A stretch of DNA of 64,000 bases from an uncultured Candidatus Saccharibacteria bacterium (GTDB lineage Bacteria > Patescibacteriota > Minisyncoccia > Phycocordibacterales > UBA2100). A program made the translations under genes and the position numbers. This document shows, piece after piece, positions 15,979-59,794 of this stretch. The notes under the pieces were generated by a model. It was not told the DNA's origin and did not search any database. It worked only from the letters and a program-made list of their open reading frames with translations. The stretch is from assembly GCA_964594735.1 (NCBI GenBank), contig CAZQMS010000006.1:13982-77981 (forward strand). The letters run 5' to 3'. Positions within the stretch are counted from its first letter, which is position 1. Each line of letters starts with the position of its first letter.

Positions 15979-17040
15979 ATGGACTACGCGACCCTTCTGA
16001 AAAAATACATCAACATCGTCGTCAACGAGGGCGCGTCCGACTTGCATCTTTCGACAGCGATGCACCCGACGCTTCGCGTCTCTGGTGTGCTCACGCCGAT
16101 GCTCAAAGAAGATGTGCTGAAGCCTGAGGACACGAAGGGTTTTGTGGCTGTGATGCTAAAACCAGAGCAGCAGAAGCAGTTTGCCGATACGCAGGAGATA
16201 GACTTTGCCTATCAGACGGAAGACGGCAATCGATTCCGAGGCAACGCGTACGTGCAGCGCGGCGCAGTCTCCATCGCACTTCGTCTTATCCCGAAGAAAA
16301 TTCGCACGATTGCGGAGCTCAACCTCCCTGAGATTGTCACGTCGTTTGCCCGCCGCTCGCAGGGGTTCTTTCTCGTTGTAGGACCAGTGGGGCAGGGTAA
16401 GACGACCACGCTTGCTGCGCTCATCGACCTCATCAACACCGAGCGCATGGAACACATCGTGACTATAGAGGACCCGATTGAATACATTTTCGAGCCGAAG
16501 CAGTCTCTCATCGACCAGCGCGAAGTGCGGGTGGACACCAAGGACTTCGCGACAGCGCTCACGGCAGCATTCCGCCAGGACATCGACGTCTTGCTCGTCG
16601 GCGAGATGCGCGATGCTGAGACCACCGCGGCCGCGGTTTCGGCCGCAGAGACGGGGCACCTCGTCTTCTCCACACTCCACACCAACAACGCCGCGCAGAC
16701 CGTAGACCGTATCATCGACATCTTCCCCGCAAGTCAGCAAGACCAGATACGTCTCCAGCTTGCATCATCGCTTGCCGGCATTTTCTCGCAGCGCCTTATC
16801 CCACGCATTTCCGGCGGGCTCATCCCAGTGTGCGAGCTCCTCATCAACAACAAGGCGGTCGCCAACCTTATCCGCGAGAAGCGGACGCACGAAATCAACA
16901 CGGTCATCGAGACGTCGTCGCAAGACGGCATGATTGATATGAACAGGAATCTCGCAGAGCTCGTCGCGCGCGGCGAGATAACGACTGAGACCGCGTACCA
17001 GTACTCACTCAACCCGAATTCACTTGAGAAGTTGATGTAG
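15979..17040 (+). CDS. pilT: twitching motility ATPase PilT
   Basis: Walker A GPVGQGKTTT, GEMRD, HTNNA His box, 353 aa. Confidence 0.9.
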   Translation: MDYATLLKKYINIVVNEGASDLHLSTAMHPTLRVSGVLTPMLKEDVLKPEDTKGFVAVMLKPEQQKQFADTQEIDFAYQTEDGNRFRGNAYVQRGAVSIALRLIPKKIRTIAELNLPEIVTSFARRSQGFFLVVGPVGQGKTTTLAALIDLINTERMEHIVTIEDPIEYIFEPKQSLIDQREVRVDTKDFATALTAAFRQDIDVLLVGEMRDAETTAAAVSAAETGHLVFSTLHTNNAAQTVDRIIDIFPASQQDQIRLQLASSLAGIFSQRLIPRISGGLIPVCELLINNKAVANLIREKRTHEINTVIETSSQDGMIDMNRNLAELVARGEITTETAYQYSLNPNSLEKLM

Positions 17041-17041
17041 T

Positions 17042-18250
17042 ATGGCCGTTTTCAACTACACGGCGCTCGACAGCGAGGGGAATGAGAGGCAGGGCACGAT
17101 AGATGCCGTCACGCAGGACGTTGCTATTACTGCACTCCAGCGCCGTGGACTCATCGTTTCTTCAGTAGCACCCGCTTCGTCCAAAGCGGTGCTCGATACG
17201 AGAATCTCGTTTACGGAACGCATAACGAACTCAGACATCGTCATGCTCTCTCGGCAGATGACGACGCTCTTCGAGGCGCAGGTATCTGCGCTTCGTGCGT
17301 TTCGTCTTCTTGCTGCCGAGTCGCGTACCGCGGCACTCGGCGATAGGCTCACCGAGGTTGCCAATGACATACAGAGCGGAAGCAGCATATCGTCGGCGCT
17401 CTCCAAACATCCCAAAGTTTTCTCGTCGTTCTACGTCAACATGGTGCGCGCGGGCGAAGAGTCGGGCAAGCTCGATGAGACATTCGCATTCCTCGCGGAT
17501 TACCTCGACAGAAACTACGAGATAACACAGAAGGCGCGCAACGCTCTCATTTACCCCGCATTCATTACCGTCACGTTCATCGCGGTCATGATACTCATGC
17601 TCACGCTCGTGATTCCCAACCTCTCGAGCATGCTTACCGAATCGGGGCAGGCGATACCGATATACACAAAAGTGGTTATAGCGCTCAGTGACTTCTTTAG
17701 GCACTACATCGTGCTTATCCTCGTCCTTCTTGTGATGGGCGGTGTATTTCTTGTCCGCTACGGCAAAACGAAGGCGGGAAGGGAGCTTTTCTCGCGCGCA
17801 CGCCTCGAGGCGCCGGCAATTGGTGGCATCTACCAGAAGATTTACCTCTCGCGTCTTGCGGACAATCTCTCGACGATGCTCAAAAGCGGAATTCAAATAC
17901 TTCGCGGCATCGAAATTACCGCAAGTGTCGTGGAAGATGCGACCTACGAGCGCATCCTGACCGCCGCGGCAGTCGATGTAAAAGCGGGCATGCCGGTCTC
18001 CGAGGCGCTCCGCAAGCATCCTGAGATACCAGGCATCGTCGTCGCTATGATGAAAATCGGTGAAGAGACGGGCAACATGGGTCAGATACTGGAAACCATC
18101 GCGCGATTCTACCGGCGCGAGGTCAACAACGCCGTCGATACGCTCGTCGGGCTGATCGAGCCGTTTATGATTGTCTCGCTCGCGGTGGGCGTCGCTATTT
18201 TGCTCGCATCGGTACTCATACCTATCTACAACGTCGCGTCGAGCTTCTGA
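17042..18250 (+). CDS. pilC: type IV pilus platform protein PilC (T2SS F domain x2)
   Basis: Two GspF-like repeats, 3 TM, 402 aa. Confidence 0.85.
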   Translation: MAVFNYTALDSEGNERQGTIDAVTQDVAITALQRRGLIVSSVAPASSKAVLDTRISFTERITNSDIVMLSRQMTTLFEAQVSALRAFRLLAAESRTAALGDRLTEVANDIQSGSSISSALSKHPKVFSSFYVNMVRAGEESGKLDETFAFLADYLDRNYEITQKARNALIYPAFITVTFIAVMILMLTLVIPNLSSMLTESGQAIPIYTKVVIALSDFFRHYIVLILVLLVMGGVFLVRYGKTKAGRELFSRARLEAPAIGGIYQKIYLSRLADNLSTMLKSGIQILRGIEITASVVEDATYERILTAAAVDVKAGMPVSEALRKHPEIPGIVVAMMKIGEETGNMGQILETIARFYRREVNNAVDTLVGLIEPFMIVSLAVGVAILLASVLIPIYNVASSF

Positions 18251-18867: not shown

Positions 18868-19686
18868 ATGTTGGTACTTTTCTCCTTCTTTCTTGGCGCA
18901 ATCATCGGGAGCTTTCTGAATGTCGTGGTCATTCGCCATGGTGCGAAGTCTCTCTCGGGCCGCTCCGCATGTCTCTCATGCGCGGCCACTATTCGATGGT
19001 ATGACAACATACCCATCGTATCGTGGTTCGTCTTGCGGGGGCGCTGTCGTGCCTGCGCAAGCCGCATATCCTTCCAATATCCGCTCGTTGAACTGCTGAC
19101 CGGTGTGCTCTTCGCGCTCGCTGCGGCAGCTCTTCTCCCGTCCTTGGTCCTGTGGCACGCACAAGCGATGCTAGTGCTCTTTTTGCACGCTGCCCTCGTC
19201 GCCGCATTCGTCGCGATAGCAGTGTACGATGCGCGTCACACGATAATTCCGGATGCATGGGCGTACGTTGCCGCTCTTGCGGCGCTCTGCATCGCTTTCC
19301 TGACGAGTTACGCGCCGATACATATGACGCTTCTCGCGGGTCCCGCCGCCGCGCTGCCACTTTTTGCACTCTGGCTCGTCTCGCAGGGGAGGTGGATGGG
19401 GCTCGGCGACGCAAAGCTCGCCCTCGCGATAGGGTGGATGCTGGGGCCAGTCTATGGCATAGCGGCAATTTTCCTCGCCTTTGTGATCGGGGCGGTCGTG
19501 AGCCTTGGCGTGCTTTTGCCGCTTCCATACCTTGTCGCTTTTGCACAGCGAGCGGGGATAGTGCGATGGCGAGCTGTGCCTTCGCGCTTTACAATGAAGA
19601 GTGAAGTGGCGTTCGGGCCGTTTCTTATCGCCGCATTCTTTACCGTATGGTTTGCACTTCTCTACCACGTCCCACTGCCGCTATGA
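18868..19686 (+). CDS. pilD: prepilin peptidase PilD (A24 family)
   Basis: N-terminal CxxC...CxxC zinc motif, polytopic membrane domain. Confidence 0.85.
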   Translation: MLVLFSFFLGAIIGSFLNVVVIRHGAKSLSGRSACLSCAATIRWYDNIPIVSWFVLRGRCRACASRISFQYPLVELLTGVLFALAAAALLPSLVLWHAQAMLVLFLHAALVAAFVAIAVYDARHTIIPDAWAYVAALAALCIAFLTSYAPIHMTLLAGPAAALPLFALWLVSQGRWMGLGDAKLALAIGWMLGPVYGIAAIFLAFVIGAVVSLGVLLPLPYLVAFAQRAGIVRWRAVPSRFTMKSEVAFGPFLIAAFFTVWFALLYHVPLPL

Positions 19687-20252
19687 TGCGGCGGCTGCAC
19701 GTGCGCGCCTTTACGCTCATTGAGATGCTCGTCGTCATCGGCATCATGGCGGTTATATCGGCGCTTATACTGGCCAACAACAACCGCTTCGGTGGGGTTG
19801 TGTTGCTTCAGAATCTTGCGTACGACATTGCGCTTTCGGTGAGGCAGGCACAGATATACGGTATCGCAGTCCAGCGCTTCAACACGAGCTTCGACGCCGG
19901 ATACGGTATGCACTTCCAGATAGACGCGAACCCGAGTACGCAGTCCGCGTACGTTCTCTTTGCAGATGTAAACGACAACGGACTCTACGACCCGACCGCG
20001 GAGCTCGTGCAGTCGACCTTTATTGCGGGCGGCTACCGCGTCTCAGAGCTCTGCGTTACGCCAGCGGGCGCGGGAGAGCGCTGCGACATCACGTCGCTCG
20101 ATGTCACATTCATCCGACCCGAGCCAGACGCATATATCCGATCGTCGCAAATCGCGGGGCTCTTCGAGGAAGGCTCTGTGACAGTCGTGTCGCCCCGCGG
20201 TGACACCAAAACGATTCGCATGCATGCAAACGGGCAGATATCCGTTGAATAG
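19683..20252 (+). CDS. minor pilin / pseudopilin 1
   Basis: Leader ...RA then FTLIEMLVVIGIMAV; overlaps pilD stop (ATGA). Confidence 0.7.
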   Translation: MMRRLHVRAFTLIEMLVVIGIMAVISALILANNNRFGGVVLLQNLAYDIALSVRQAQIYGIAVQRFNTSFDAGYGMHFQIDANPSTQSAYVLFADVNDNGLYDPTAELVQSTFIAGGYRVSELCVTPAGAGERCDITSLDVTFIRPEPDAYIRSSQIAGLFEEGSVTVVSPRGDTKTIRMHANGQISVE

Positions 20253-20314
20253 TATCTAGTATGGAGTATTTAGTATTCGGTATAGAAAGAGTCAGGAGTG
20301 CGATACGATCGCGA

Positions 20315-20926
20315 ATGCGTGTACGAAATACTACACACCGCGGACGACATACCAGCCGAGGTTTTACGCTCGTCGAACTCATCGTGGCGGTAGGACTCTT
20401 TGCGGTCGTCATGCTCATATCCATAGCGGCGCTCCTCTCCCTCGTCGAGGCAAACCGTCGTGCGCAGGCACTGCAGTCGGTCATGAACAACCTCAACGTC
20501 GCGGTCGATGGTATGGTTCGCTCGGTGCGGGAGGGCTCCAACTATTACTGTGGCGCGATTCCTTCAGACCCCGATGCCACGCTCGATTGCGCAGACAATG
20601 GCGAGGAGATTTTCGCCTTTACGCCATTTTCCGACGGCATTACGGACCCGCCACGCTGGATCTATTGGTTTGCGGAAGACGATAATGGCATTGGACGTCT
20701 CTGGAAATCTGAAGATGGTACGCTCGATGGCGGACTACCCATCACATCGCCGGAGGTCTCCATCGATTCGGTGACATTCTATGTCATTGGTTCCACGCGC
20801 GGTGGTGGTGATGTCATCCAGCCGAAAGCGATGGTCGTGATAAAGGGTACGGCAGGACAGAAAGTAACATCGCGCTCAACATTTCACATCCAGGCAACCG
20901 CTGTGCAGCGTCTCTTAGACCTATGA
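20315..20926 (+). CDS. minor pilin / pseudopilin 2 (alternative start 20261)
   Basis: Leader ...SRG then FTLVELIVAVGLFAVV. Confidence 0.7.
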   Translation: MRVRNTTHRGRHTSRGFTLVELIVAVGLFAVVMLISIAALLSLVEANRRAQALQSVMNNLNVAVDGMVRSVREGSNYYCGAIPSDPDATLDCADNGEEIFAFTPFSDGITDPPRWIYWFAEDDNGIGRLWKSEDGTLDGGLPITSPEVSIDSVTFYVIGSTRGGGDVIQPKAMVVIKGTAGQKVTSRSTFHIQATAVQRLLDL

Positions 20927-21558
20927 GAAAAGAGTTTACAGTTTACAGTTTACAGTTGACAGAAAGGAGTCGGGGTTTCCGGACTGTGCTGTCATCTGTC
21001 AACTGCCGACAGTCAACTCGAGCGTTCACGCTCATCGAGACGCTCGTTGCGGTAGCTTTCCTTACGGTGGCCATCATCGCCCCCATGACACTGACGCAGC
21101 AGAGTCTTTCAAGTGCGTACTATGCGCGTGACCAGATAACCGCGTACAACCTCGCGCAAGAGGGAATCGAGTCGGTGCGCGCGATTCGCGACGGGCAGAT
21201 ACTCACGATTTCGCAATCCGCGGATGCGACAGCGATCGATCTCTTTGGCGCAATACCCGTCAATCAAGACTTTATAATCGATGGTCTTGATACGAATCCC
21301 GAGACGGCTATGGAGACGTGTTCGGGAATCTGCCCCAATCTGCAACTCAGTCCCGACGGAACACTCTACGGGTACGGGGCCGGCTGGACGCCGACGAAGT
21401 TTATCCGCACGCTCACCGCATCGTACGTGGGGGAGTCGACGGACGAGATACAGCTCGAGGTCAACGTGTCCTGGGAAACTGACGGAGGCCAAACGCGCAC
21501 GTTTTCAATCCATGAAAACGTGTACCGCTGGATAATCGACGGAAGTGGCGCAAATTAA
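20923..21558 (+). CDS. minor pilin / pseudopilin 3 (start uncertain; TACAGTT repeat lies in the annotated 5' end)
   Basis: ...TRA then FTLIETLVAVAFLTVAII. Confidence 0.6.
   Translation: MRKEFTVYSLQLTERSRGFRTVLSSVNCRQSTRAFTLIETLVAVAFLTVAIIAPMTLTQQSLSSAYYARDQITAYNLAQEGIESVRAIRDGQILTISQSADATAIDLFGAIPVNQDFIIDGLDTNPETAMETCSGICPNLQLSPDGTLYGYGAGWTPTKFIRTLTASYVGESTDEIQLEVNVSWETDGGQTRTFSIHENVYRWIIDGSGAN
20934..21016. repeat. TACAGTT-heptamer repeat with inverted partner CTGTCAACTG
   Basis: GTTTACAGTTTACAGTTTACAGTTGACAG...CTGTCATCTGTCAACTGCCGACAGTCAACTCG. Confidence 0.6.
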
Positions 21559-21560
21559 GT

Positions 21561-22112
21561 ATGAATCACGACGCACGAAGCACGAAGCAAGGAGTACGAA
21601 GAGCGAGTCGACACAGAGCGCAGCGCGGCTTTACGCTTCTTCTCGCGGCGCTGGTCGCATCCATCGTACTCGCGCTCGGCAGTTCGATATTCCTTATCGC
21701 ACGCAAGCAGGTGACACTCTCATCGCTTGGCCGAGATTCGCAGTTTGCATTCTATGCAGCAGACACGGGTGCAGAATGTGCACTCTACTGGGACATCCGT
21801 CACAGCGCCTTCGGTTCATCAACGCCGGAGACTCCGCCCACGTGCGCCGAGCAAGTTCTCGGCGAGGTGGTGACGGAGGGAGAGAGGTCTTCCGGCCCGC
21901 CGTACACAATCGAGTTTGAAATGGACCTTTTTGTCAACGCTGATGGCGTGGCGGGCACGTTCGACGATTCGGGCTACTGCGCCCGTGTATCCGTGCAGAA
22001 AAATACGAGCAATCCGTTTACCGTGATTCACGCCGATGGACACTCGACTCCGTGCGAGGCAATCGAGAGCAGTGCGCGGTCACTTCAGCGCTCAGTCCAG
22101 CTGCGGTATTGA
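21561..22112 (+). CDS. minor pilin / pseudopilin 4 (lacks Glu5)
   Basis: ...QRG then FTLLLAALVASIVLAL. Confidence 0.6.
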   Translation: MNHDARSTKQGVRRASRHRAQRGFTLLLAALVASIVLALGSSIFLIARKQVTLSSLGRDSQFAFYAADTGAECALYWDIRHSAFGSSTPETPPTCAEQVLGEVVTEGERSSGPPYTIEFEMDLFVNADGVAGTFDDSGYCARVSVQKNTSNPFTVIHADGHSTPCEAIESSARSLQRSVQLRY

Positions 22113-26618: not shown

Positions 26619-26691
26619 AGCGGGGTGGAGCAGGAGTAGCTCGCCAGGCTCATAACCTGGAGGTCGCGGGTGCAATTCCCGCCCCCGCAAC
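26619..26691 (+). tRNA. tRNA-Met, initiator-like (CAU), no encoded CCA
   Basis: Near-identity to bacterial tRNA-fMet core (GCGGGGTGGAGCAG...GCTCATAACC...CCCCCGCAA), mismatched 1:72 pair; coordinates within 2 nt. Confidence 0.8.
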
Positions 26692-26700
26692 ACGATGGAG

Positions 26701-26729
26701 AAAAACGCCGCATCAAGCGGCGTTTTTCT
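26701..26729. terminator. terminator hairpin after tRNA-fMet
   Basis: AAAAACGCCGCATCAAGCGGCGTTTTTCTC. Confidence 0.7.
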
Positions 26730-26908
26730 CAGTCCGATAGAATCCCAAGCACGACTTCTGCGATGGTGAACGCGAGAAAAATGATGATTGCAACGATAAG
26801 CATTTTCCACTGGAGTGTCATCACGGCCCGGCCAGCGGCATAGAGGACGAAGACAAAGGCAGCAGGCCAGAAGAGGAACGAATTGATTCCCATGAGTCTA
26901 TTCCACAT
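26729..26908 (-). CDS. possible small 2-TM membrane protein (59 aa, below ORF-track cutoff)
   Basis: Manual translation MWNRLMGINSFLFWPAAFVFVLYAAG...IIIFLAFTIAEVVLGILSD. Confidence 0.25.
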   Translation of the reverse strand: MWNRLMGINSFLFWPAAFVFVLYAAGRAVMTLQWKMLIVAIIIFLAFTIAEVVLGILSD

Positions 26909-27022
26909 GAAAGGGAGTGTACTAGTCGTATATGCAAAAACAAGTTCGTTCCGCCAGGCGTCGGGGAGAGGCGCGAGCTGATATTGGCGGAGAAATATCC
27001 ATGGGGTATAGTTTTCCTCATC

Positions 27023-27096
27023 GTCGGGGTAGCTCAGTCGGTTAGAGCGAGCGTTTCATAAGCGCTAGGTCGTGGGTTCGATTCCCACCCCCGACA
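27023..27096 (+). tRNA. tRNA-Met/Ile2 (CAU), elongator type
   Basis: Acceptor GTCGGGG/CCCCGAC, anticodon loop TTCATAA, T-loop GTTCGATTC. Confidence 0.8.
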
Positions 27097-27141
27097 CTCG
27101 CAGGGCAGGGGAATATGCGCTATTCTCTCTGTGCTGCGCAT

Positions 27142-27215
27142 GCGGGTGTAGCTCAATTGGTTAGAGCACTCCCCTGTCACGGGAGAGGCTGCGGGTTCGA
27201 GTCCCGTCACTCGCG
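27142..27215 (+). tRNA. tRNA-Asp (GUC)
   Basis: Acceptor GCGGGTG/CACTCGC, anticodon loop CTGTCAC, T-loop GTTCGAGTC. Confidence 0.8.
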
Positions 27216-27271
27216 CAATCGCATAGGAAATGTTCTCAAGTGCAAGCATGGATGTTACTATCCATGCCACG

Positions 27272-27356
<85 letters not shown>

Positions 27357-27407
27357 ATTGTTCAACTCTAGACCTCACATCCATACTGCGCTTGGTATGA
27401 TGTTGAG

Positions 27408-27872
27408 ATGGTGAATTCGAGACGTCCGAGAAAGCCCTGTCGCAATTGTGGCAAAGAGCCCGCAAGCCATACGTATACATATTGCAGCAACCTATGCCAA
27501 CGTGAGCAAGAACACAAAATCTATATAAAAAAATGGAAACGAGGGGAAATATCTGGACTAAGTACCATAGGGACAGTTTCGTCTAATCTTAAAAGATACT
27601 TGCGGAATAAATTTGGCAATAAGTGCTGTCTGTGCGGGTGGGCAGTAGTGAATGAAAAGACTGGGCAGGTACCTTTGGTTGCCGATCATATCGATGGAAA
27701 CTGGAGAAACAATCTAGACACAAACTTGCGTCTACTGTGTCCGAATTGCGATGCCATCAGTCCCACGTTTGCGGGACTCAACAGAGGGAAAGGAAGAACA
27801 AATCGTGGAGTAAGTAATCGGGTCAGGGAAGGGGGTCTTCTTGCGAGAAGTAGAAAACGGCGCAGGACGTGA
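27408..27872 (+). CDS. HNH endonuclease (low-GC insertion in tRNA cluster)
   Basis: CRNCG...CSNLC and CLCGW...HIDGNWRNN...LLCPNCD HNH/zinc motifs; about 45% GC. Confidence 0.75.
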   Translation: MVNSRRPRKPCRNCGKEPASHTYTYCSNLCQREQEHKIYIKKWKRGEISGLSTIGTVSSNLKRYLRNKFGNKCCLCGWAVVNEKTGQVPLVADHIDGNWRNNLDTNLRLLCPNCDAISPTFAGLNRGKGRTNRGVSNRVREGGLLARSRKRRRT

Positions 27873-27893
27873 TATATTCTTACTCGCTCGTCT

Positions 27894-27966
27894 GCCGGAG
27901 TAGCTCAGTTGGTAGAGCAATGCTTTCGTAAAGCATAGGTCACCGGTTCAAATCCGGTCTCCGGCT
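27894..27966 (+). tRNA. tRNA-Thr (CGU)
   Basis: Acceptor GCCGGAG/CTCCGGC, anticodon loop TTCGTAA, T-loop GTTCAAATC. Confidence 0.8.
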
Positions 27967-27984: not shown

Positions 27985-28881
27985 ATGTCGAAAGAAGCTA
28001 CGCAGGCACGCATCGCTGAGATAGAAGCGGCGATGGCCTCACCCGATTTTTGGACCAACAAGGACGCCGCGCAGGCGACACTAAAGGAGTACCAAGATCT
28101 CAAAGCGAAACTTGTCGGAGGCACGGGATACGATAAAAACGACGTGATTGTGTCTATCGTGTCAGGCGCGGGTGGTGACGATGCGGAGGATTTTTCCCGC
28201 ATCCTTTTTGAGATGTACAAAAAATATGTCGCATCAAAGGGGTGGGGTGTTTCTATGCTCTCGTCCAACGAAAATTCCATGGGCGGGTATCGCTCTGTCT
28301 CCTTTGAGGTGAACGGGAGCGGTGCATATGGCACGCTCCGGCATGAAGCCGGGGTGCACCGGCTCGTCCGCATGTCGCCCTTCAATGCTGCGGGCAAGCG
28401 CCAGACTTCATTTTCGCTCGTCGAAGTATTGCCGCAGCTCCCCGATGGAGGCGACCTGCACATTCCCGAATCCGACCTCGAGATTTCTGTCGCACGCTCC
28501 GGCGGCCCCGGAGGACAAAATGTGAACAAGCGTGATACGGCGGTGCGCATGCTGCACAAGCCGACAGGCCTTGCGGTACATGTCACGAGCGAGCGCAGTC
28601 AGGCACAAAATAAAGAAAAGGCACTCGAGATGCTCCGCGGTAAGCTCTTCCAGATACGTCAGGCCGCCCAGGAGAAAGAGGCTCGCGGCATGTCGGCGGG
28701 AGCATCGACGAAGATAGAGTGGGGAAGTCAGATACGTTCCTACGTCCTGCATCCGTACCAACTCGTGAAAGACCACCGAACCGATCATGAAAGGCGAGAC
28801 GTGGATAAAGTGCTCGAGGGAGACATCCAGTCTTTCATCGATGAAGAGAAGAATTTGGATACTGCTGCTACCGGGGTATAA
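27985..28881 (+). CDS. prfB: peptide chain release factor 2 (short N-terminus, no frameshift site)
   Basis: SPF tripeptide (RMSPFN), GGQ motif [11 protein letters not shown]; 298 aa. Confidence 0.85.
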
Positions 28882-28890
28882 TAACGACCG

Positions 28891-29580
28891 TTGTGTATGA
28901 TCTATTTCGATAAAGTCACCAAGGTTTATTTCGACGGTGCTCCTCCTGCCGTCCAGGATATAACGCTCGGCATCGACCCGGGCGAATTCGTTTCAATAGT
29001 GGGACACTCCGGAGCGGGAAAAACGACGCTCCTCAAGATGCTTTTTGCCGAAGTCTTCCCGACGGAAGGCTCAGTCTATTTCGGGTCTCGTCAGATACGA
29101 GAGCTCTCCAATCACGAGCTCCTGAAACTGCGTCGCAACATCGGCACGGTGTTCCAGGACTTTCGGCTTCTTGGTACGAAAAATGTCTATGAGAATATCG
29201 CGTTCGCGCTCGAAGTCGCAGGGAAGAGCGACGAAGACATCCAGGCGGACGTACCGCACGTCCTCGAGCTCGTGGGACTGTCCGACAAAATATGGAGTTT
29301 CCCGCACGAGCTCTCGGGAGGGGAACAGCAGCGCATTGCGATCGCGCGCGCCATCGTCAATCAGCCTGATGTCCTCATCGCAGACGAACCGACCGGCAAT
29401 CTCGATCCCATCAATGCGCACGATGTCGTCGAGATTCTAAAGAAAATCAACGACCTGGGTACGACGGTTCTGCTCACCACGCACAACAAGGTGGTGGTGG
29501 ATTCCATCGGGAGGCGCGTGGTCACCATGGACCAAGGGCGCATCGTGCGCGACGACAAACAGGGGAAATACGTATTATGA
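28891..29580 (+). CDS. ftsE: cell division ABC ATPase FtsE
   Basis: Walker A GHSGAGKTT, signature LSGGEQQR, Walker B ILIADEPT. Confidence 0.85.
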   Translation: MCMIYFDKVTKVYFDGAPPAVQDITLGIDPGEFVSIVGHSGAGKTTLLKMLFAEVFPTEGSVYFGSRQIRELSNHELLKLRRNIGTVFQDFRLLGTKNVYENIAFALEVAGKSDEDIQADVPHVLELVGLSDKIWSFPHELSGGEQQRIAIARAIVNQPDVLIADEPTGNLDPINAHDVVEILKKINDLGTTVLLTTHNKVVVDSIGRRVVTMDQGRIVRDDKQGKYVL

Positions 29581-29582
29581 AA

Positions 29583-29672
29583 ACAGTCAACAGCGTACAG
29601 TCTACAGTTTACAGTTTACAGAATGATTATGATCAGACTTCAACTGTTAACCGTTAACTGTAAGCTGTAAAC
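29583..29672. repeat. TACAGTT-heptamer palindromic element (second copy of the family at 20934)
   Basis: CAGTCAACAGCGTACAGTCTACAGTTTACAGTTTACAG...CAACTGTTAACCGTTAACTGTAAGCTGTAAAC forms a long imperfect inverted repeat between ftsE and ftsX. Confidence 0.6.
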
Positions 29673-30611: not shown

Positions 30612-32273
30612 ATGGCACAAAAGCGCGGCGGCAGGTCGGGTCACAAGTACATATTCGTCGTAGGGGGCGTAATGTCTGGGGTCGGAAAGGGAATATCAAC
30701 AGCGTCGATAGGCAAGATTCTATCGGCGCGCGGACTCAGGGTGAATTTGATGAAAATTGACCCGTACCTCAACGTAGATGCAGGCACCATGAATCCCACC
30801 GAACACGGTGAGGTATTCGTGCTCGACTCAGGGCTCGAGACCGACCAGGACATGGGCAACTACGAGCGCTTCTTGGGTCGCGACTTGGGTCCCGAGGATT
30901 ACATGACTAGTGGTATGGTCTATCAGACCGTTATTGAGCGTGAACGTAATTTGGGGTATGGAGGTAAATTCGTTGAGGCTATCCCGCATGTGCGCGATGA
31001 GATAGTCGAACGAATCAAACGTTCTGCCGAGATAGGTCAGACGGATGTTACCGTCATCGAAATCGGTGGGACAATCGGTGACTTCCAGAATGCGCTCTAC
31101 ATTGATGCGGCGCGCGTAATAAAGATGAAGAATCCTGAGGATGTGCTCTTTGTCATGGTGTCGTACCTACCGGTCCCCGGCACGATTGGAGAGATGAAGA
31201 CGCGTCCCACGCAACACGCGGTGCGCGAACTCAACTCCTACGGCGTACAGCCTGATATCCTCATAGCTCGTTCGACTCATGCACTGGACGACAAGCGCAA
31301 GGAAAAACTTGCGATTTGGTGTAATCTGGAACCCGACCATATTATCTCCGCGCCCGATGTCGCTTCCATATACGATGTTCCGCTGAATTTCGAGCGCGAC
31401 AAGCTCTCCGACATTTTACTGAGGGCTCTTGGCAAGAAGGTGAAGCAGGGATCTGATTTCGGCGACTGGAAGCACTTCGTCGAGAGGGTGCACAATGGAA
31501 ATGGCACCGTAAAAATCGGCGTCGTCGGCAAATATTTCGACACGGGCGACTTCGTGCTCTCTGATGCGTACATCTCCGTCATCGAGGCGATTAAGTTCTC
31601 CGCATACGCACAGGGTGTAAAGCCCCAGATAGATTGGCTGAACGCGAAGAAGTACCAAGACGACCCTGAATCGGTCAAAGAGCTGGCTCAATACGATGGC
31701 ATCCTTGTGCCCGGCGGATTCGGTGAGACCGGCATCGAGGGCAAGATTGCCGCGATACGATTCGCGCGCGAAAACAAAATCCCATATTTTGGTCTCTGCT
31801 ATGGCATGCAGCTCCTCACGGTCGAGTACGCGCGCAATGTAGCGGGTCTCGAAGGCGCTCACACGACAGAGATCAACCCCAAGTCGCCACATCCGGTCAT
31901 CATGATTCTGCCTGAGCAGGTAGAGAAGCTTGCGAAGAAAGACTATGGGGGCTCCATGCGGCTCGGTGCATACCCGTGCAAGCTAAAAGACGGCACTATT
32001 GCGCGCGAGGCGTACGGCGAGGCCACGGTGTCGGAGAGGCATCGTCACCGCTACGAAGTGAATCCCGACTATGTCGAGAGGCTCGCTGAAGCAGGGCTCG
32101 TATTTTCCGGCACGTCGCCCGACGGCAGGCTCATGGAAATCGCAGAGCTCCCGAAAGACGTCCACCCCTTTATGCTCGGGACACAGTTCCATCCGGAGCT
32201 GAAAGCACGTCCGCTTTCGCCTCATCCGCTCTTCGACGCCTTTATCAAGGCGGCAAAAGCCCGCAAGACCTAA
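30612..32273 (+). CDS. pyrG: CTP synthase
   Basis: N-terminal KYIFVVGGVMSGVGKGI, C-terminal glutamine amidotransferase GLCYGMQ; internal ATG of ORF 30450..32273. Confidence 0.9.
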   Translation: MAQKRGGRSGHKYIFVVGGVMSGVGKGISTASIGKILSARGLRVNLMKIDPYLNVDAGTMNPTEHGEVFVLDSGLETDQDMGNYERFLGRDLGPEDYMTSGMVYQTVIERERNLGYGGKFVEAIPHVRDEIVERIKRSAEIGQTDVTVIEIGGTIGDFQNALYIDAARVIKMKNPEDVLFVMVSYLPVPGTIGEMKTRPTQHAVRELNSYGVQPDILIARSTHALDDKRKEKLAIWCNLEPDHIISAPDVASIYDVPLNFERDKLSDILLRALGKKVKQGSDFGDWKHFVERVHNGNGTVKIGVVGKYFDTGDFVLSDAYISVIEAIKFSAYAQGVKPQIDWLNAKKYQDDPESVKELAQYDGILVPGGFGETGIEGKIAAIRFARENKIPYFGLCYGMQLLTVEYARNVAGLEGAHTTEINPKSPHPVIMILPEQVEKLAKKDYGGSMRLGAYPCKLKDGTIAREAYGEATVSERHRHRYEVNPDYVERLAEAGLVFSGTSPDGRLMEIAELPKDVHPFMLGTQFHPELKARPLSPHPLFDAFIKAAKARKT

Positions 32274-42679: not shown

Positions 42680-44380
42680 ATGAAAAAGCTCATCGTTTCT
42701 GCAGTCGGTCTTGCAACGCTTCTTTGCGCCTCGGCCGTGTCGGCCCAGGCGTACTACACGGGCGGAACCTACGGCACATCCTACAACTATGCGACATGTG
42801 CCTCGCTCTCACGCGACCTCTCAATCGGCATGCGTGGCAGCGACGTATCGGCTCTCCAGAGCTTTCTCGTGAGCCGCAACTATCCTGGCGGCGGCTCCTG
42901 GATGGTCACCGGCTACTTTGGCCGCGCGACGCAAGCTGCGGTGCAGATTTTCCAGCGTGAGCGAGGCATTGCTGCGACGGGCGCAGTGGACAGCGCGACG
43001 CGCGCAGCAATCTGCCTGCCCGGCCAGGGTGGCAACGTCGTGAATCCGTTCCCGACGTACCCGACATATCCGACGTACCCCACGTATCCGACCTATCCTA
43101 CGTACCCAACGTATCCGTCGACCGTCACGATTTCGTCACTCTCGACGAACTCGGCTGCTCAGGGTGCTCCGATTACTGTGTACGGCACGGGTTTCGATTA
43201 CAACAATAACACCGTCTACGTCGGCTCTGTCCCGCTCACCGGCATCTCGTCGCTAAGCGGCACGTCGCTCACGTTTACGGTGCCGACGTACCTTACGGGC
43301 ACCGTGCAAGTGTACGTCGCGAATACGCGTGGCCAGAGCAATGCGCTCTCACTCTCCATCGTGCCCTTTACGCAACCGTGCCTGCCCGGCCAGGGTGGCA
43401 CGTACCCGTACACGACGAACTGCGGATGTTCATACCCGTACAACAATTGTCCGACCGGACAGCTCTCGATTTCGTACCTCTCACCGACGAGCGGTGCGGT
43501 CGGCAGCACGGTGACGATATACGGGACGGGCTTCAGCTCTACAAACAACACGGTCATGTTCGGCCAGGGGATTATCACCGGCATCAACTCGTTCGACGGC
43601 CGCTCGCTCACGTTTACTGTCCCGTCGCAGCTTGTCGGCTACGGAACGCAGCAAGTAACGCTCGCGACGTACCAAGTGTCCGTCAAGAACAGCGCAGGGT
43701 TCTCGTCGAATTCGCTTCCGTTCACGGTGACCTCGCTCGGCTCTGCTGGTGCGCCGATTATCTCGAGCATCTCGGGTCCGACATCGCTCCAGACCGGCTC
43801 GACGGGCACGTGGTCGGTCCAGGTCTACAATACGCCACAGAGCTACAGCAACTTTGTCACGGTGTCCGTGACCTGGGGCGATGAAAATCAATACGGTTCA
43901 TCTCTTTCTCCCGCGCAGACATCGTACGCGCAGGGGAGTCAGACATTCACCTTCTCGCACACCTACCAGCAGGCGGGTACGTACACAGTGCGCTTCACAG
44001 TGACGAACGCGTCTGGCCAGACGAATAGTTCGACCGCTATGGTGAGCGTGTCGGGCTCAAACACCGGTTCGCTCGCACTCTCATCAGTGTCTCCCGCTTC
44101 TGGTCGTGTGGGCACGCAGGTTGTGCTCACAGGTAGTGGATTCAGTGCGACCGACAACACCGTGCGATTCGGCGTCGGCGGTACGCAGCACCTCCCGTCG
44201 TTCAACGGTGGCACGACCATCTACTACACCATTCCGCAATACGTCTCTCCGTGCGATGTCATCGCACAGGGTCAGGTCTGCGCGCAGTACTTCCAGCAGG
44301 TAACACCGGGCACATACTCGATATCGGTACAGAACGGTTCGTACACGACGGGTGCGCTCAACTTCACGGTCACGCAGTAA
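42680..44380 (+). CDS. secreted surface protein: signal peptide, peptidoglycan-binding domain, PTY tandem repeats, multiple IPT/TIG-like domains
   Basis: MKKLIVSAVGLATLLCASAVSAQA; PGBD_1-like DVSALQSFL...ATQAAVQIFQRERGIAATGAVD; (PTY)x7; repeated ITVYGTGF, VTIYGTGF, VVLTGSGF motifs; internal ATG of ORF 42572. Confidence 0.7.
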   Translation: MKKLIVSAVGLATLLCASAVSAQAYYTGGTYGTSYNYATCASLSRDLSIGMRGSDVSALQSFLVSRNYPGGGSWMVTGYFGRATQAAVQIFQRERGIAATGAVDSATRAAICLPGQGGNVVNPFPTYPTYPTYPTYPTYPTYPTYPSTVTISSLSTNSAAQGAPITVYGTGFDYNNNTVYVGSVPLTGISSLSGTSLTFTVPTYLTGTVQVYVANTRGQSNALSLSIVPFTQPCLPGQGGTYPYTTNCGCSYPYNNCPTGQLSISYLSPTSGAVGSTVTIYGTGFSSTNNTVMFGQGIITGINSFDGRSLTFTVPSQLVGYGTQQVTLATYQVSVKNSAGFSSNSLPFTVTSLGSAGAPIISSISGPTSLQTGSTGTWSVQVYNTPQSYSNFVTVSVTWGDENQYGSSLSPAQTSYAQGSQTFTFSHTYQQAGTYTVRFTVTNASGQTNSSTAMVSVSGSNTGSLALSSVSPASGRVGTQVVLTGSGFSATDNTVRFGVGGTQHLPSFNGGTTIYYTIPQYVSPCDVIAQGQVCAQYFQQVTPGTYSISVQNGSYTTGALNFTVTQ

Positions 44381-57101: not shown

Positions 57102-57305
57102 ATCTATTCTAGTGTTTTGCCCTCCTTCGCATAAAGCTACGGACGGGCAGGCAAAAGACTGTAATAAGAAATCGGGGGATGGGATAGGGGTGAGGTGGGG
57201 GAATGGATGGATGGGGGTGGATGGGGAGGAGAATGGAGGGTGGCTGGGGAGACGAATGGGGGCGGCATCATGCCGAGTTCCCCAAAATCAAGATCCGTGG
57301 GATTC
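57102..57305 (+). repeat. repeat module copy A: hairpin (TAGTGTTTTGCC...GGCAAAAGACTG), purine-rich tract, junction motif GTTCCCCAAAATCAAGATCCGTGGGA
   Basis: Aligns along about 150 nt with copy B at 58347-58497. Confidence 0.7.
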
Positions 57306-58346: not shown

Positions 58347-58497
58347 GATTCTATTTCAGTGTTTTGCCTGACCGGCCAGGGCAAAAGACTGTAATGAGGA
58401 TTGGGGGAATTGGGGAAAATTGGAAAAAAGGATTCGGAATGGGTGAGGACGGCTCGGCACCATGCCCAGTTCCCCAAAATGAAGAATTGTGGGAGCA
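58347..58497 (+). repeat. repeat module copy B: hairpin (CAGTGTTTTGCC...GGCAAAAGACTG), purine-rich tract, junction motif GTTCCCCAAAATGAAGAATTGTGGGA
   Basis: Homologous to copy A; bracketed by junction-motif copies at 58324-58341 and 58469-58494. Confidence 0.7.
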
Positions 58498-58504
58498 TTA
58501 GACC

Positions 58505-59047
58505 ATGTTTGGCGTGAGTGAAATGTTGCCGTTGTTTTTGTGGGCGCTAACGATCGCCGTCTTCGTCGCGGCTGTCGTGATGGCCGTGATACTTTTCATC
58601 GTGCGCCGCCGGGAGACGCCGCTCAGCTACACACGAAAGGAATCCATATTTGATATACACACTGAGCGCGAACTTTTTGACACATTGCAGGAGTTGTACG
58701 GAGACCGGTACTTCGTTTTCCCTCAAGTCCATTACAGTCATCTCTTGCGGCCGAGTAAAGAACTTTCGTATCGCGACAGGCTTGTTCTGAGAAACAAGGT
58801 AGACAGGAAATCTGCAGACTTCGTACTGTGCGAAAAGAGTGACGTAAGCGTCAGGCTTGTTATCGAGCTGGACGGCAGCAGCCATGACCGACCAGACAGG
58901 CAGGAGCGAGACACATTCATAAATTCGATTGCAAACACTTCCAATTTGAACCTGCTTCGTATGCCGACGAATCGCATGGATAGAGCGTCAGTACTAGAGC
59001 AAGTAGACGCCAAGTTGGCGCAGATTCCCGCAGGTTCCCCAAAATGA
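58505..59047 (+). CDS. DUF2726-like (NERD/PD-(D/E)xK-fold) protein with N-terminal TM
   Basis: YFVFPQVHYSHLL...KSADFVLCEKSD..VRLVIELDGSSH pattern. Confidence 0.65.
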   Translation: MFGVSEMLPLFLWALTIAVFVAAVVMAVILFIVRRRETPLSYTRKESIFDIHTERELFDTLQELYGDRYFVFPQVHYSHLLRPSKELSYRDRLVLRNKVDRKSADFVLCEKSDVSVRLVIELDGSSHDRPDRQERDTFINSIANTSNLNLLRMPTNRMDRASVLEQVDAKLAQIPAGSPK

Positions 59048-59060
59048 AGATTCGTGGGAT
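59033..59060 (+). repeat. junction motif copy C (GGTTCCCCAAAATGAAGATTCGTGGGAT) overlapping DUF2726-like stop codon
   Basis: TGA stop lies inside the motif. Confidence 0.65.
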
Positions 59061-59071
59061 GATTTTCACGC

Positions 59072-59794
59072 ATGCACAAATTGTCGCGCGCGACGATAGA
59101 GAAGTTGGGATATTACGTCTACATCCTCTCTGATCCGCGCACGAACAAGGCTTTTTACGTCGGCAAGGGTAGGGGCAATCGCATCAATTCGCACCTGCTC
59201 GGTGCTCTCGAGGAAAATACCAAAGAGACTCTGAAGATCCGCACTATTCGCGAGATTCAGGCTGCCGGCCTGGAAGTCGGTCTCACCATCTTGCGCCACG
59301 GCCTTTCTGAAAGGGAGGCGTTTGAAGTAGAAAGTGCGATTATCGATGTCTTTGGGTTGGAGAATCTTACCAACATCGTCACGGGTCACTATGCGCATGT
59401 GCGCGGGAAAATGAGCGTGCGTGATATCGAGATTGAATACCAAGCCAAACCGGCCGTCTTCGACGAGCCTGTTTTGCTTATCCGAATCAACAGACTATAC
59501 AGGCACGACATGCCCGCTGAAGAATTGTACGAAGCAACACGCAAGTATTGGCGAATCCGATTGCGAGATGATATGCCTCGTGTCGTCTGCGCAGTGTATG
59601 CGGGCATTATTCGCGAAGTCTACCTTGCGCAGACGTGGATACGCCCCAACGGCTTGAAGGGAAAAATTGAAGGCCGCATCGCTTTCGAGGGCGCGATCGC
59701 GCCGCCAGGAATCCGCGAGAAGTATCTGAACAAATCCGTCGTGCACGTTCTCAAGCAGGGGAGCCAGAATCCTATTAAGTACGTCGGGCGCTGA
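59072..59794 (+). CDS. GIY-YIG nuclease-domain protein with C-terminal extension
   Basis: GYYVYILSD...KAFYVGKGRG GIY-YIG motifs; about 240 aa. Confidence 0.7.
   Translation: MHKLSRATIEKLGYYVYILSDPRTNKAFYVGKGRGNRINSHLLGALEENTKETLKIRTIREIQAAGLEVGLTILRHGLSEREAFEVESAIIDVFGLENLTNIVTGHYAHVRGKMSVRDIEIEYQAKPAVFDEPVLLIRINRLYRHDMPAEELYEATRKYWRIRLRDDMPRVVCAVYAGIIREVYLAQTWIRPNGLKGKIEGRIAFEGAIAPPGIREKYLNKSVVHVLKQGSQNPIKYVGR

Follow-up and report, generated by a model that had tools for sequence, protein, structure and literature searches.

Inverted heptanucleotide arrays at cistron junctions of Candidatus Kaiserbacteria and related bacteria: a putative translated hairpin bridging stop and start codons

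We analysed a 64,000-nt stretch of contig CAZQMS010000006.1 (assembly GCA_964594735.1, positions 13,982 to 77,981), hereafter the window, in which two hairpin-forming elements built of tandem 7-nt units lie at gene starts. According to Pfam, the neighbourhood encodes prepilin peptidase, N-methyl pilins, LigA, FtsE, FtsX and PyrG, and the operon genes of the window adjoin or overlap each other. The first element (site 1) lies within the leader-coding region of a minor pilin gene, pseudopilin 3, whereas the second (site 2) occupies the whole 99-nt spacer between ftsE and ftsX. An earlier note on this DNA had reported TACAGTT-type elements with inverted partners at these two places; both are confirmed here (20935-21016 and 29584-29671) and fold far better than shuffled sequences. 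Their components are as follows.

20923-20934, + strand: ATG of pseudopilin 3 overlapping the pseudopilin 2 stop codon (ATGA), then purine-rich codons (M-R-K-E); 5' boundary of the site 1 module
20935-20962, + strand: site 1, 5' arm of NNNNNAG type, three TTTACAG units and one TTGACAG, translated as FTVYSLQLT
20963-20988, + strand: site 1 loop of 26 nt, AAAGGAGTCGGGGTTTCCGGACTGTG, with a small inner stem
20989-21016, + strand: site 1, 3' arm of CTNNNNN type, CTGTCAT CTGTCAA CTGCCGA CAGTCAA
21017-21027, + strand: final leader codons (R-A) and prepilin cleavage site A|FTLIE (21024/21025), followed by the mature pilin; the open reading frame (ORF) spans 20923-21558
29577-29657, + strand: short ORF of 26 codons, MKTVNSVQSTVYSLQNDYDQTSTVNR*, whose ATG overlaps the ftsE stop codon (ATGA, 29577-29580) and which extends across the 5' arm and loop into the 3' arm of site 2, where it terminates
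29584-29621, + strand: site 2, 5' arm, CAGTCAA CAGCGTA CAGTCTA CAGTTTA CAGTTTA CAG, or in the NNNNNAG phase TCAACAG CGTACAG TCTACAG TTTACAG TTTACAG
29622-29643, + strand: site 2 loop of 22 nt, AATGATTATGATCAGACTTCAA, with a small inner stem; it has AATGATTATGA in common with the loop of relative L027 at the same junction
29644-29671, + strand: site 2, 3' arm of CTNNNNN type, CTGTTAA CCGTTAA CTGTAAG CTGTAAA, ending 8 nt from the ftsX ATG (29680)

Both sites form long imperfect hairpins in which a mismatch recurs every ~7 nt. Folding energies were compared with those of 200 shuffles on both strands. None of the shuffles was as good as the + strand folds of site 1 (-36.9 kcal/mol, z -3.7) and site 2 (-29.1 kcal/mol, z -3.4), the - strand folds reached -33.7 and -38.2 kcal/mol, respectively, and the z-scores ranged from -3.4 to -4.9 across both strands. 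The earlier note had placed an inverted repeat in the ftsE-ftsX spacer, which is indeed there, but the arrangement is not restricted to this spacer, as site 1 is also an inverted pair. Similarly, the CAGTCAAC motif that it listed separately is present but is only the variant unit CAGTCAA of the same array. Searching the 64 kb for TACAGTTTACAG with up to two mismatches returned nine matches, all of them in sites 1 and 2, as compared with 2.16 +/- 1.42 in shuffled sequences, and a count of nine was reached in none of 100 shuffles.

Measured from the ATGA to the downstream landmark, the modules of sites 1 and 2 are 102 nt and 103 nt long. They align over their full length with hairpins of two relatives, L112 and L188, at 73% mean column identity, and all four follow a common plan consisting of ATGA and a purine-rich start, four to five units, a loop of 22-29 nt and four further units. 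The alignment revealed no significant similarity among the loops of these four elements; the loop of site 1 is similar to those of the pilin hairpins in L068 (AGAAAGAATCCG). The CTGTCAA arm of site 1 was also found in L112, L203, L206, L157 and L188. A search of the window and 12 loci with Rfam 15 at the gathering threshold returned only tRNAs and one FMN riboswitch (in L022), and matched neither the heptamer hairpins nor the IR2 inserts described below. Scanning for promoters and terminators gave no + strand call in site 1 or site 2, with totals equal to the shuffle expectation, and its sole match within site 2 is weak and lies on the - strand. A -10-like box (TATAAT or TATGAT) is present in the loops of several relatives, too inconsistently for a claim.

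Using Tandem Repeats Finder and a self-match scan, we compared the periods from 4 to 12 at a threshold of at least 17 of 21 self-matches. Period 7 was the sole enriched non-triplet period in the window, with 36 positions as compared with 0-3 for each other period, and these positions fall in four places only, namely sites 1 and 2 and two further arrays in neighbouring pilin genes.

20250-20284, + strand: degraded 5' arm at pseudopilin 2, TAGTATC TAGTATG GAGTATT TAGTATT CGGTATA, beginning at the upstream stop codon (fold z 0.25)
21570-21604, + strand: array in the leader-coding region of pseudopilin 4, GACGCAC GAAGCAC GAAGCAA GGAGTAC GAAGAGC, with no inverted partner detected (z 1.6)

In L157, the orthologue of the first of these is a GGAGTAT arm whose hairpin is intact. 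The four arrays thus comprise three unit types, TTTACAG, TAGTATT and GAAGCAC. Two other tandem arrays of the window have unrelated periods, one of period 9/27 at 43047-43117 (CGTACCCGA, 7.9 copies), within the coordinates of the ORF 42680-44380, and one of period 23 at 57211-57266 (ATGGGGGTGGCTGGGGAGAAGA, 2.5 copies).

We further compared the window with 80 related Candidatus Kaiserbacteria loci retrieved by FtsX anchoring (1.12 Mb in total), a retrieval that placed the source of the window as a Candidatus Kaiserbacteria-like member of the Candidate Phyla Radiation (CPR). Among these relatives, period 7 yielded 29 clusters as compared with 0-6 for other periods, and 50 clusters as compared with 5-9 for non-triplet periods at the looser threshold of at least 16 of 21. 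The module belongs to a lineage-wide class in Candidatus Kaiserbacteria and related CPR bacteria. The expectation that copies would sit at the 5' ends of genes is borne out, as all four window arrays are located at gene starts or junctions, and the modules of relatives are likewise found at junctions, with a few inside pyrG and ligA. Of 45 arrays in relatives, about half are accompanied by an inverted partner no more than 160 nt away, and lone arrays were found immediately upstream of the ftsE, ligA and gatA starts.

The units vary by species and by site and include GCTACAA, GCTAGAA, CCTATAA, GTATACG, GAGCGTC, TTTGATT and others. For example, ~9 modules are packed into 10.5 kb of L157, every one of them having a unit of its own (about seven different units). 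What the arrays have in common is an anchor: an invariant AG/CT dinucleotide recurs every 7 nt in 39 of 91 distinct CPR arrays, as compared with 15 for the runner-up class, TA, and with a 17% share of AG/CT among array dinucleotides. The family is best written as (NNNNNAG)n and (CTNNNNN)n. Where an array terminates no more than 6 nt from an ORF start, it is invariably of the CT type on the sense strand (10:0). Two other rules, one requiring an A/C-rich ATG-proximal arm throughout and the other a 5' arm free of stop codons, fail in several spacers (L011, L027, L032 and L041), and were replaced by the narrower CT/AG anchor rule.

Such a fixed dinucleotide and the strict CT polarity beside start codons are what a binding-site array for a DNA- or RNA-binding protein would present, be it the common regulator suggested in the earlier note, a heptad binder like the omega repressor of pSM19035 or a Csp/S1-type protein on RNA. 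In addition, S1, Csp or CsrA binding was proposed by MacGregor for the TAACTGA (= CTGATAA) repeats upstream of starts (PMC4679880). However, five positions of the 7-nt unit are unconstrained and vary both between sites of one genome and between orthologous sites, so that a sequence-specific regulator is unlikely. Moreover, half of the arrays lie inside translated sequence, and no candidate protein was identified. We give very little credence to this explanation as a whole; the CT/AG anchor alone could be readable by a low-specificity binder such as S1 or Csp.

The ftsE-ftsX junction illustrates how the modules are placed. In a census of 80 genomes (79 related loci and the window), 19 of them (24%; 18 relatives and the window) possess a heptamer element of 37-137 nt, whose 5' arm immediately follows the stop codon of ftsE and whose 3' arm extends to the ATG of ftsX. 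About 40 of the 79 relatives have a spacer of 5-24 nt at this junction, and at least ten carry an unrelated insert of 175-270 nt, termed IR2, that is absent from the window.

L009:3326-3506, L010:4397-4575, L013:6860-7050, L015, L022, L026, L035, L036, L040, L044: IR2 inserts

The IR2 insert is built of two stems, GAGCGnAGCGA/TCGCTnCGCTC on the outside and one of 18 bp (GACCCGCC...) on the inside, together with a variable loop of ~90 nt, and compensatory changes affect 13 of 27 predicted pairs. On the FtsX tree, genomes in the short-spacer, heptamer and IR2 states are intermingled. A homologous but diverged module is common to the window and L001, which are 90% identical, whereas the sisters L002 and L003 (84% FtsX identity) have a spacer of 9 nt.

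Filled and empty sites were also found at the pilT-pilC junction, which is empty in the window (17039-17044, 1-nt spacer) and filled in L188 and L157, the module taking the whole spacer. The TTTACAG/CTGTCAA pair of the window occurs in syntenic relatives in the orthologous pilin leader (L112), between pilT and pilC (L157, L188) and at pilin 4/ligA (L203). This finding, together with the 73% mean column identity of the four aligned modules, speaks against the case in which only the two window copies exist and are unrelated beyond the heptamer. A metagenome scan for (TTTACAG)3 returned at least 120 loci, and among the matches listed at least 21 have an inverted CTGTAAA-type partner, with the order TTTACAG...loop...CTGTAAA prevailing over the reverse by 21:0.

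The earlier note had suggested a small dispersed family of REP/MITE-like repeats (repetitive extragenic palindromes and miniature inverted-repeat transposable elements). A small family of hairpins at gene starts does exist, judged by the common unit, architecture and size, the full-length alignment and the additional junctions in relatives, but a REP/MITE identity in the strict sense is no more than tentative. One could still imagine a mobile palindromic cassette of ~100 nt that is copied between junctions. The same unit pair with its periodic mismatch, preceded by ATGA and purines and of equal size, appears at four junction types in one clade, and both filled and empty sites are known. The flanks offer a possible target-site duplication: at pilT-pilC, L188 has CTATGAG on both sides and L157 only TATG, and (T)ATG(A)/(T)ATG flanks many copies, including those at ftsE-ftsX. 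A target-site duplication is nevertheless not established, because start-codon context together with Leu and the TGA stop also explains the flanking (T)ATG. The copies in Kaiserbacteria have no common core outside the arrays, and their loops are site-specific. The units are specific to the site in each genome and conserved at orthologous sites, as in the pilin 2 arm (GGAGTAT in L157, TAGTATT in the window). TTTACAG copies number only two in 64 kb, and no transposase turned up, no systematic transposase search of the window ORFs having been made. We therefore regard a mobile cassette as quite improbable. Since the L157 modules each have their own unit, and the GGAGTAT arm is orthologous to the TAGTATT array of the window, the units appear to be tied to their sites and passed on mostly by vertical descent, although several junctions of a clade can be occupied by the same unit pair.

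A TTTACAG-armed hairpin family with a conserved, asymmetric core (GATGATTAC ... GGCTTTGCCAGG ... GTAATCATC) was found outside CPR, in contigs with a GC content of ~0.5 (L093, L098, L103, L125/L150, L128, L177, L185, L194). Its members occur in both orientations, two of them on one 248-kb contig, a kind of copy number and core conservation that would suit a REP/MITE-like element. Its likeness to the window loop is restricted to about 9 + 4 nt. These contigs derive from diderm bacteria, possibly Bacteroidota, because they encode xylanase, beta-xylosidase and TolC/RND efflux proteins. Three further loci of higher GC content (L143, L190 and L193; 0.53-0.60) contain many heptamer hairpins with assorted units.

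Comparison of orthologous arrays (L054 and L059, the window and L001/L025, and the pilin leaders) demonstrated that they differ in unit and copy number and are homogeneous within each array, a pattern that points to slippage-type homogenisation in each arm and to turnover of the units between species. The arms still remain complementary at 5-6/7 positions. Among 15 independent unit families, represented by consensus units, complementarity averages 5.0-5.4 of 7 positions within elements as compared with 3.7-3.9 of 7 between elements, and at least 5 of 7 positions are complementary in 11 of the 15 families as compared with 17% of cross pairs. Arm complementarity thus outlasts complete unit turnover. 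The periodic mismatches between arms, such as TTTACAG opposite CTGTCAA and GCCAGCA opposite GCTACGA, would be the product expected of independent homogenisation inside each arm. The force that restores complementarity could be either selection for pairing or DNA-level template switching between the arms. The antisense fold is equal to or better than the sense fold in 13 of 19 spacers, and so the stabilities do not point to RNA-specific selection, and template switching at the DNA level could maintain the pairing. L054 (11000-11260) and L059 (8528-8790), two genomes that are only ~81-85% identical in the prfB-ftsE region, share at 99% identity a stretch of 263 nt with an AATCTCT/AGAGATT heptamer hairpin; it may be either unusually conserved or recently exchanged.

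These properties raise the question of whether the modules have any function. A neutral or selfish microsatellite, driven by 7-nt replication slippage and inter-arm template switching, could survive at permissive junctions, in cleaved leaders and in surface loops, with the open frames and the ATGA being secondary repair of the damage. Heptamers are the most abundant class of long simple sequence repeats in prokaryotes and are ascribed to polymerase slippage (Mrazek 2007, as cited in PMC4679880 and PMC4692102). The presence of the module varies among close relatives, as described above for the window and L001 against L002 and L003; decayed copies exist at 20250-20284, at 21570-21604 and in L001; the 'AY|G' loop of pyrG and a linker of ligA contain translated arrays; the module is missing from the closest pilin orthologues (73-86% identity), whose leaders are short; and strand-specific G-U support is lacking. 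On the other hand, leader length is steady at ~31-36 aa, and arm pairing persists through full unit turnover over deep divergence. Between the window pilin (P0001) and P0055, the leader is better conserved (~70% identical) than the mature part or the whole protein (57%), the CT polarity beside starts is strict, and ftsE-ftsX is occupied in 24% of genomes. Streamlined genomes are, on our assumption, expected to delete junk DNA. On balance, we consider a functionless microsatellite unlikely, while taking it as a serious contender.

In pyrG, small in-frame insertions are concentrated in the loop 'AY|G', which immediately precedes the conserved ERHRHRYE motif of CTP synthase. Recognisable GCTACAA-type arrays were found there in L009 (5829-5871), L043 (6961-6998) and L068 (12661-12703), one example being translated as TSYRLQATGYKL, and decayed-looking inserts in L030, L035, L045, L059, L067 and L075. 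The window pyrG (~30640-32273) has no insert.

The modules are apparently kept readable by ribosomes. In 16-17 of 18 pilin genes that bear arrays, the frame that begins at the upstream ATG stays open through both arms and continues into the pilin. Leader length in 120 orthologues of pseudopilin 3, a PilV-like minor pilin, is bimodal, with either 3-15 aa or 29-42 aa, the long form being called in ~25% of them. Long leaders such as MRKEFTVYSLQ...LSTVNCRQSTRA|FTLIE comprise about 34 aa, and in all long-leader orthologues the ATGA and 8 nt precede the first unit and the units are in the same phase. The site 1 3' arm unit CTGTCAA is stop-free in all frames, whereas CTGTAAA, the exact complement of the 5' arm unit, contains TAA. 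The earlier note had suspected a mis-set start codon of this pseudopilin. This suspicion is not supported, in view of the overlap of ATG 20923 with the upstream stop, the frame that is open through both arms here and in the other array-bearing genes, and the stop-free CTGTCAA arm; an independent gene call on L082 also starts pilin 3 at ATG 20923. Internal starts at GTG 20986 for pilin 3 and ATG 20315 for pilin 2 were considered as possible, the latter being used in the gene call on L082, but the conserved open frame from the upstream ATG favours the long leader. Two orthologues of the window pilin, P0100 and P0102, carry a GIY-YIG endonuclease domain (PF01541) of ~94 aa in frame upstream of G|FTLIE, at the position of the heptamer module, suggesting that the pilin leader region also accepts a homing-endonuclease-like ORF.

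Outside of the pilin genes, 10 of 12 junction copies have a short ORF that begins at the ATGA, crosses the hairpin and ends within 26 nt of the downstream ATG or overlaps it, an arrangement expected by chance in an estimated ~30%. Of the ftsE-ftsX spacers, 10 of 19 with heptamers and 6 of 10 with IR2 have an ATGA at the ftsE stop codon, as compared with none of 38 short non-overlapping ones.

A 7-nt unit is not divisible by three, and the arrays of the pilin genes lie in the 5' coding part of surface-structure genes within the cleaved leader (at site 1, between ATG 20923 and A|FTLIE), so they might act as a phase-variation switch of the Neisseria opa kind, in which adding or losing a single unit would move the mature pilin out of frame with the ATG or back into it, and the hairpin would raise the rate of slippage. 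Each paralogue having its own unit, and perfect tracts of four to five units in some relatives, would fit such a switch. It is not supported, because 16-17 of the 18 pilin copies are in the ON frame, with no clear OFF allele among them. The tracts are short, with three perfect units at most in the window, and modules are also found at housekeeping junctions (ftsE-ftsX, prfB-ftsE, ligA, gatA, pyrG). We judge phase variation to be very unlikely. It should be noted that L081 and L082, retrieved by exact-protein look-ups of FtsX and pilin 3 from the single run SRR15237806, are identical to the window and, being from the same sample, are silent on slippage.

The genomic context bears on how such modules might be read. 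By a loose test, a Shine-Dalgarno (SD) motif precedes 10 of 69 window genes, whereas a TAnnnT box is located 6-8 nt before the ATG in 23 of 69. TATAAT-, TATACT- or TAGAAT-like boxes were noted, for example, upstream of the ATGs at 18868, 22131, 24143, 27408, 27985, 34176, 38526, 45493, 47051 and 57437. Such boxes indicate that the organism uses leaderless mRNAs, apparently along with tight coupling of stop and start codons. One of the putatively leaderless genes is prfB (27985-28881), which encodes an N-terminally short RF2 homologue (298 aa; the PCRF match begins at profile position 85) and lies directly downstream of a cluster of five tRNA genes (26619-27966); a programmed +1 frameshift site was not seen in the window prfB. 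The motif TTCCCCAAAATGAAGAaTtGTGGGA occurs upstream of two consecutive genes (58470-58505, start 58505, and 59040-59072, start 59072), with a similar 'tttcccaaag' before 59889, and may represent a shared promoter or operator.

Taking these observations together, we propose that the element is a module of ~100 nt in which two inverted heptanucleotide microsatellite arrays, of NNNNNAG units upstream and CTNNNNN units downstream, surround a loop of 20-30 nt, and which spans a cistron junction precisely, from the stop codon of one gene (as a rule within an ATGA that supplies an overlapping start) to the start codon of the next, in a way that preserves translational coupling. We assign this reading a probability of roughly 0.55. 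From the scarcity of SD sites and the many leaderless genes, we infer that the module would serve as a translated hairpin bridging stop and start. In a genome that depends on termination-reinitiation, an insert of 100 nt would break coupling unless its ends meet and a relay carries ribosomes from one to the other. On the polycistronic transcript, the base of the hairpin would set the stop codon beside the next start and hide the CT-rich initiation region. A terminating ribosome would restart at the overlapping AUGA and translate the short ORF or leader; unwinding of the hairpin in the process would expose the CT-rich arm together with the AUG downstream, so that translation would pass to the next cistron. 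In the minor pilins, the relay ORF would be fused in frame to the gene as a prepilin leader, a fusion that should be harmless because PilD removes the leader. That the module actively enforces or tunes coupling, rather than being merely tolerated, is a more tentative proposition.

Several observations weigh against this coupling model. The short ORF of site 2 ends 22 nt short of the ftsX ATG, and the ATGA is missing in 9 of 19 heptamer spacers. The antisense fold matches or exceeds the sense fold in most spacers, and the sense RNA has no G-U signature. Sense hairpins are weak in four of nine orthologous pilin leaders (z -0.4 to -1.2) and in L001. Single arrays, and arrays translated within pyrG and the ligA linker, would fit tolerated junk. 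Finally, one unit pair at several unrelated junctions of a clade implies that local slippage alone is insufficient.

A broader extension of the bridging-hairpin model is that inverted (NNNNNAG)n/(CTNNNNN)n arrays are a general cis-acting coupling device in SD-less, leaderless CPR genomes, opened only by AUGA re-initiation, in which slippage in the arms tunes or switches the downstream cistron. This generalisation is speculative and, in our judgement, distinctly unlikely. If it were true, the tuning or switching would include minor pilins used in host attachment or DNA uptake, and a CTR-N4 logic would also explain TAACTGA- and STRR-type heptamers in other SD-poor phyla. Regardless of its scope, this lineage offers a readable natural experiment, with exact stop-to-start arrays, open frames, cleavable leaders, co-varying arms and few SD sites, that makes the bridging-hairpin model testable. 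For the annotation of CPR genomes, the practical consequence is that neither a long pilin leader nor a 'spacer' of 100 nt should be taken for a start-codon error.

Several known repeat systems resemble these modules in part. In Neisseria, CTCTT repeats of opa genes lie in the region encoding the cleaved signal peptide, where repeat number alters the frame but not the mature protein. They share with site 1 a non-triplet tandem repeat inside a cleaved surface-protein leader; unlike them, the present arrays are short, nearly all in frame, paired and also located at housekeeping junctions, whereas opa tracts are longer and demonstrably variable. REP/REPIN sequences, MITEs (Correia, ERIC) and Rickettsia palindromic elements are short hairpin repeats of transcribed operon spacers with presence/absence polymorphism, the Rickettsia elements also inserting in frame in genes. 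Those families consist of a conserved sequence in many copies, with a transposase or target duplication in the case of REP and MITE, whereas conservation in the present modules is confined to the period, the CT/AG anchor and the architecture. The STRR repeats of cyanobacteria comprise several different tandem heptamers per genome, and their function is unknown. Their unit CAACAGT is almost identical to TCAACAG of the window; they belong to a different phylum, and we know of no junction-filling inverted pairs or translation described for them. Cyanobacterial STRR heptanucleotide repeats from Calothrix and Nostoc are cited in PMC4692102.

The window arrays qualify as heptanucleotide long simple sequence repeats in the sense of Mrazek (2007): their 7-nt units are arranged head to tail beyond chance, and both unit and unit number change between relatives. 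One of the two closest parallels is Xanthomonas, whose genomes each have ~186 GGGAATC arrays, usually four units long, and 70-75 cases of two close convergent arrays (Rehm et al. 2015, PMC4692102). Similar to the present modules, these are tandem 7-nt units, ~4 per array, located between co-directional genes, with opposed pairs able to form stem-loops and extensive variability in length and sequence between close species; sites 1 and 2 likewise consist of opposed arrays of the same unit. However, the Xanthomonas unit is G-rich and forms G-quadruplexes, whereas the window units (TTTACAG/CTGTAAA, CTNNNNN) are free of G tracts. The Xanthomonas arrays lie ~28 nt from the end of the upstream ORF and ~160 nt from the downstream start, whereas those described here fill the space from stop to start and are translated. 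Finally, one unit dominates the Xanthomonas genome, in contrast to the many units here that have only the CT/AG anchor in common.

Among the Beggiatoaceae, 169 direct sets and one indirect set of TAACTGA were reported, with two to six units, mostly located a few nt upstream of starts that lack ribosome-binding sites (MacGregor 2015, PMC4679880). These repeats are also present in some Cyanobacteria and Bacteroidetes, and a role in translation has been proposed (PMC4679880). Like the present arrays, they are start-proximal, in a single orientation and SD-less, and their unit, when read as CTGATAA, fits the CTRNNNN pattern. The window units CTGTAAA, CTGTTAA and CTGTCAA match CTGATAA at 5 of 7 positions and are thus not the TAACTGA unit itself, and other sites have unrelated five-base fillers. 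In contrast to the fixed unit of Beggiatoaceae, with nearly no inverted pairs, the arrays described here consist of variable units, are paired with an inverted array in about half of the cases and lie within coding leaders in some. In the literature library that was searched, no publication ties heptamer repeats to CPR/Patescibacteria. The role of heptanucleotide repeats has been unexplained since their description in cyanobacteria, Xanthomonas and Beggiatoaceae. The present case unites the Xanthomonas and Beggiatoaceae arrangements, adding variable units on a CT/AG anchor, exact stop-to-start placement, apparent translation, with fusion into prepilin leaders among its forms, and co-variation of the arms.

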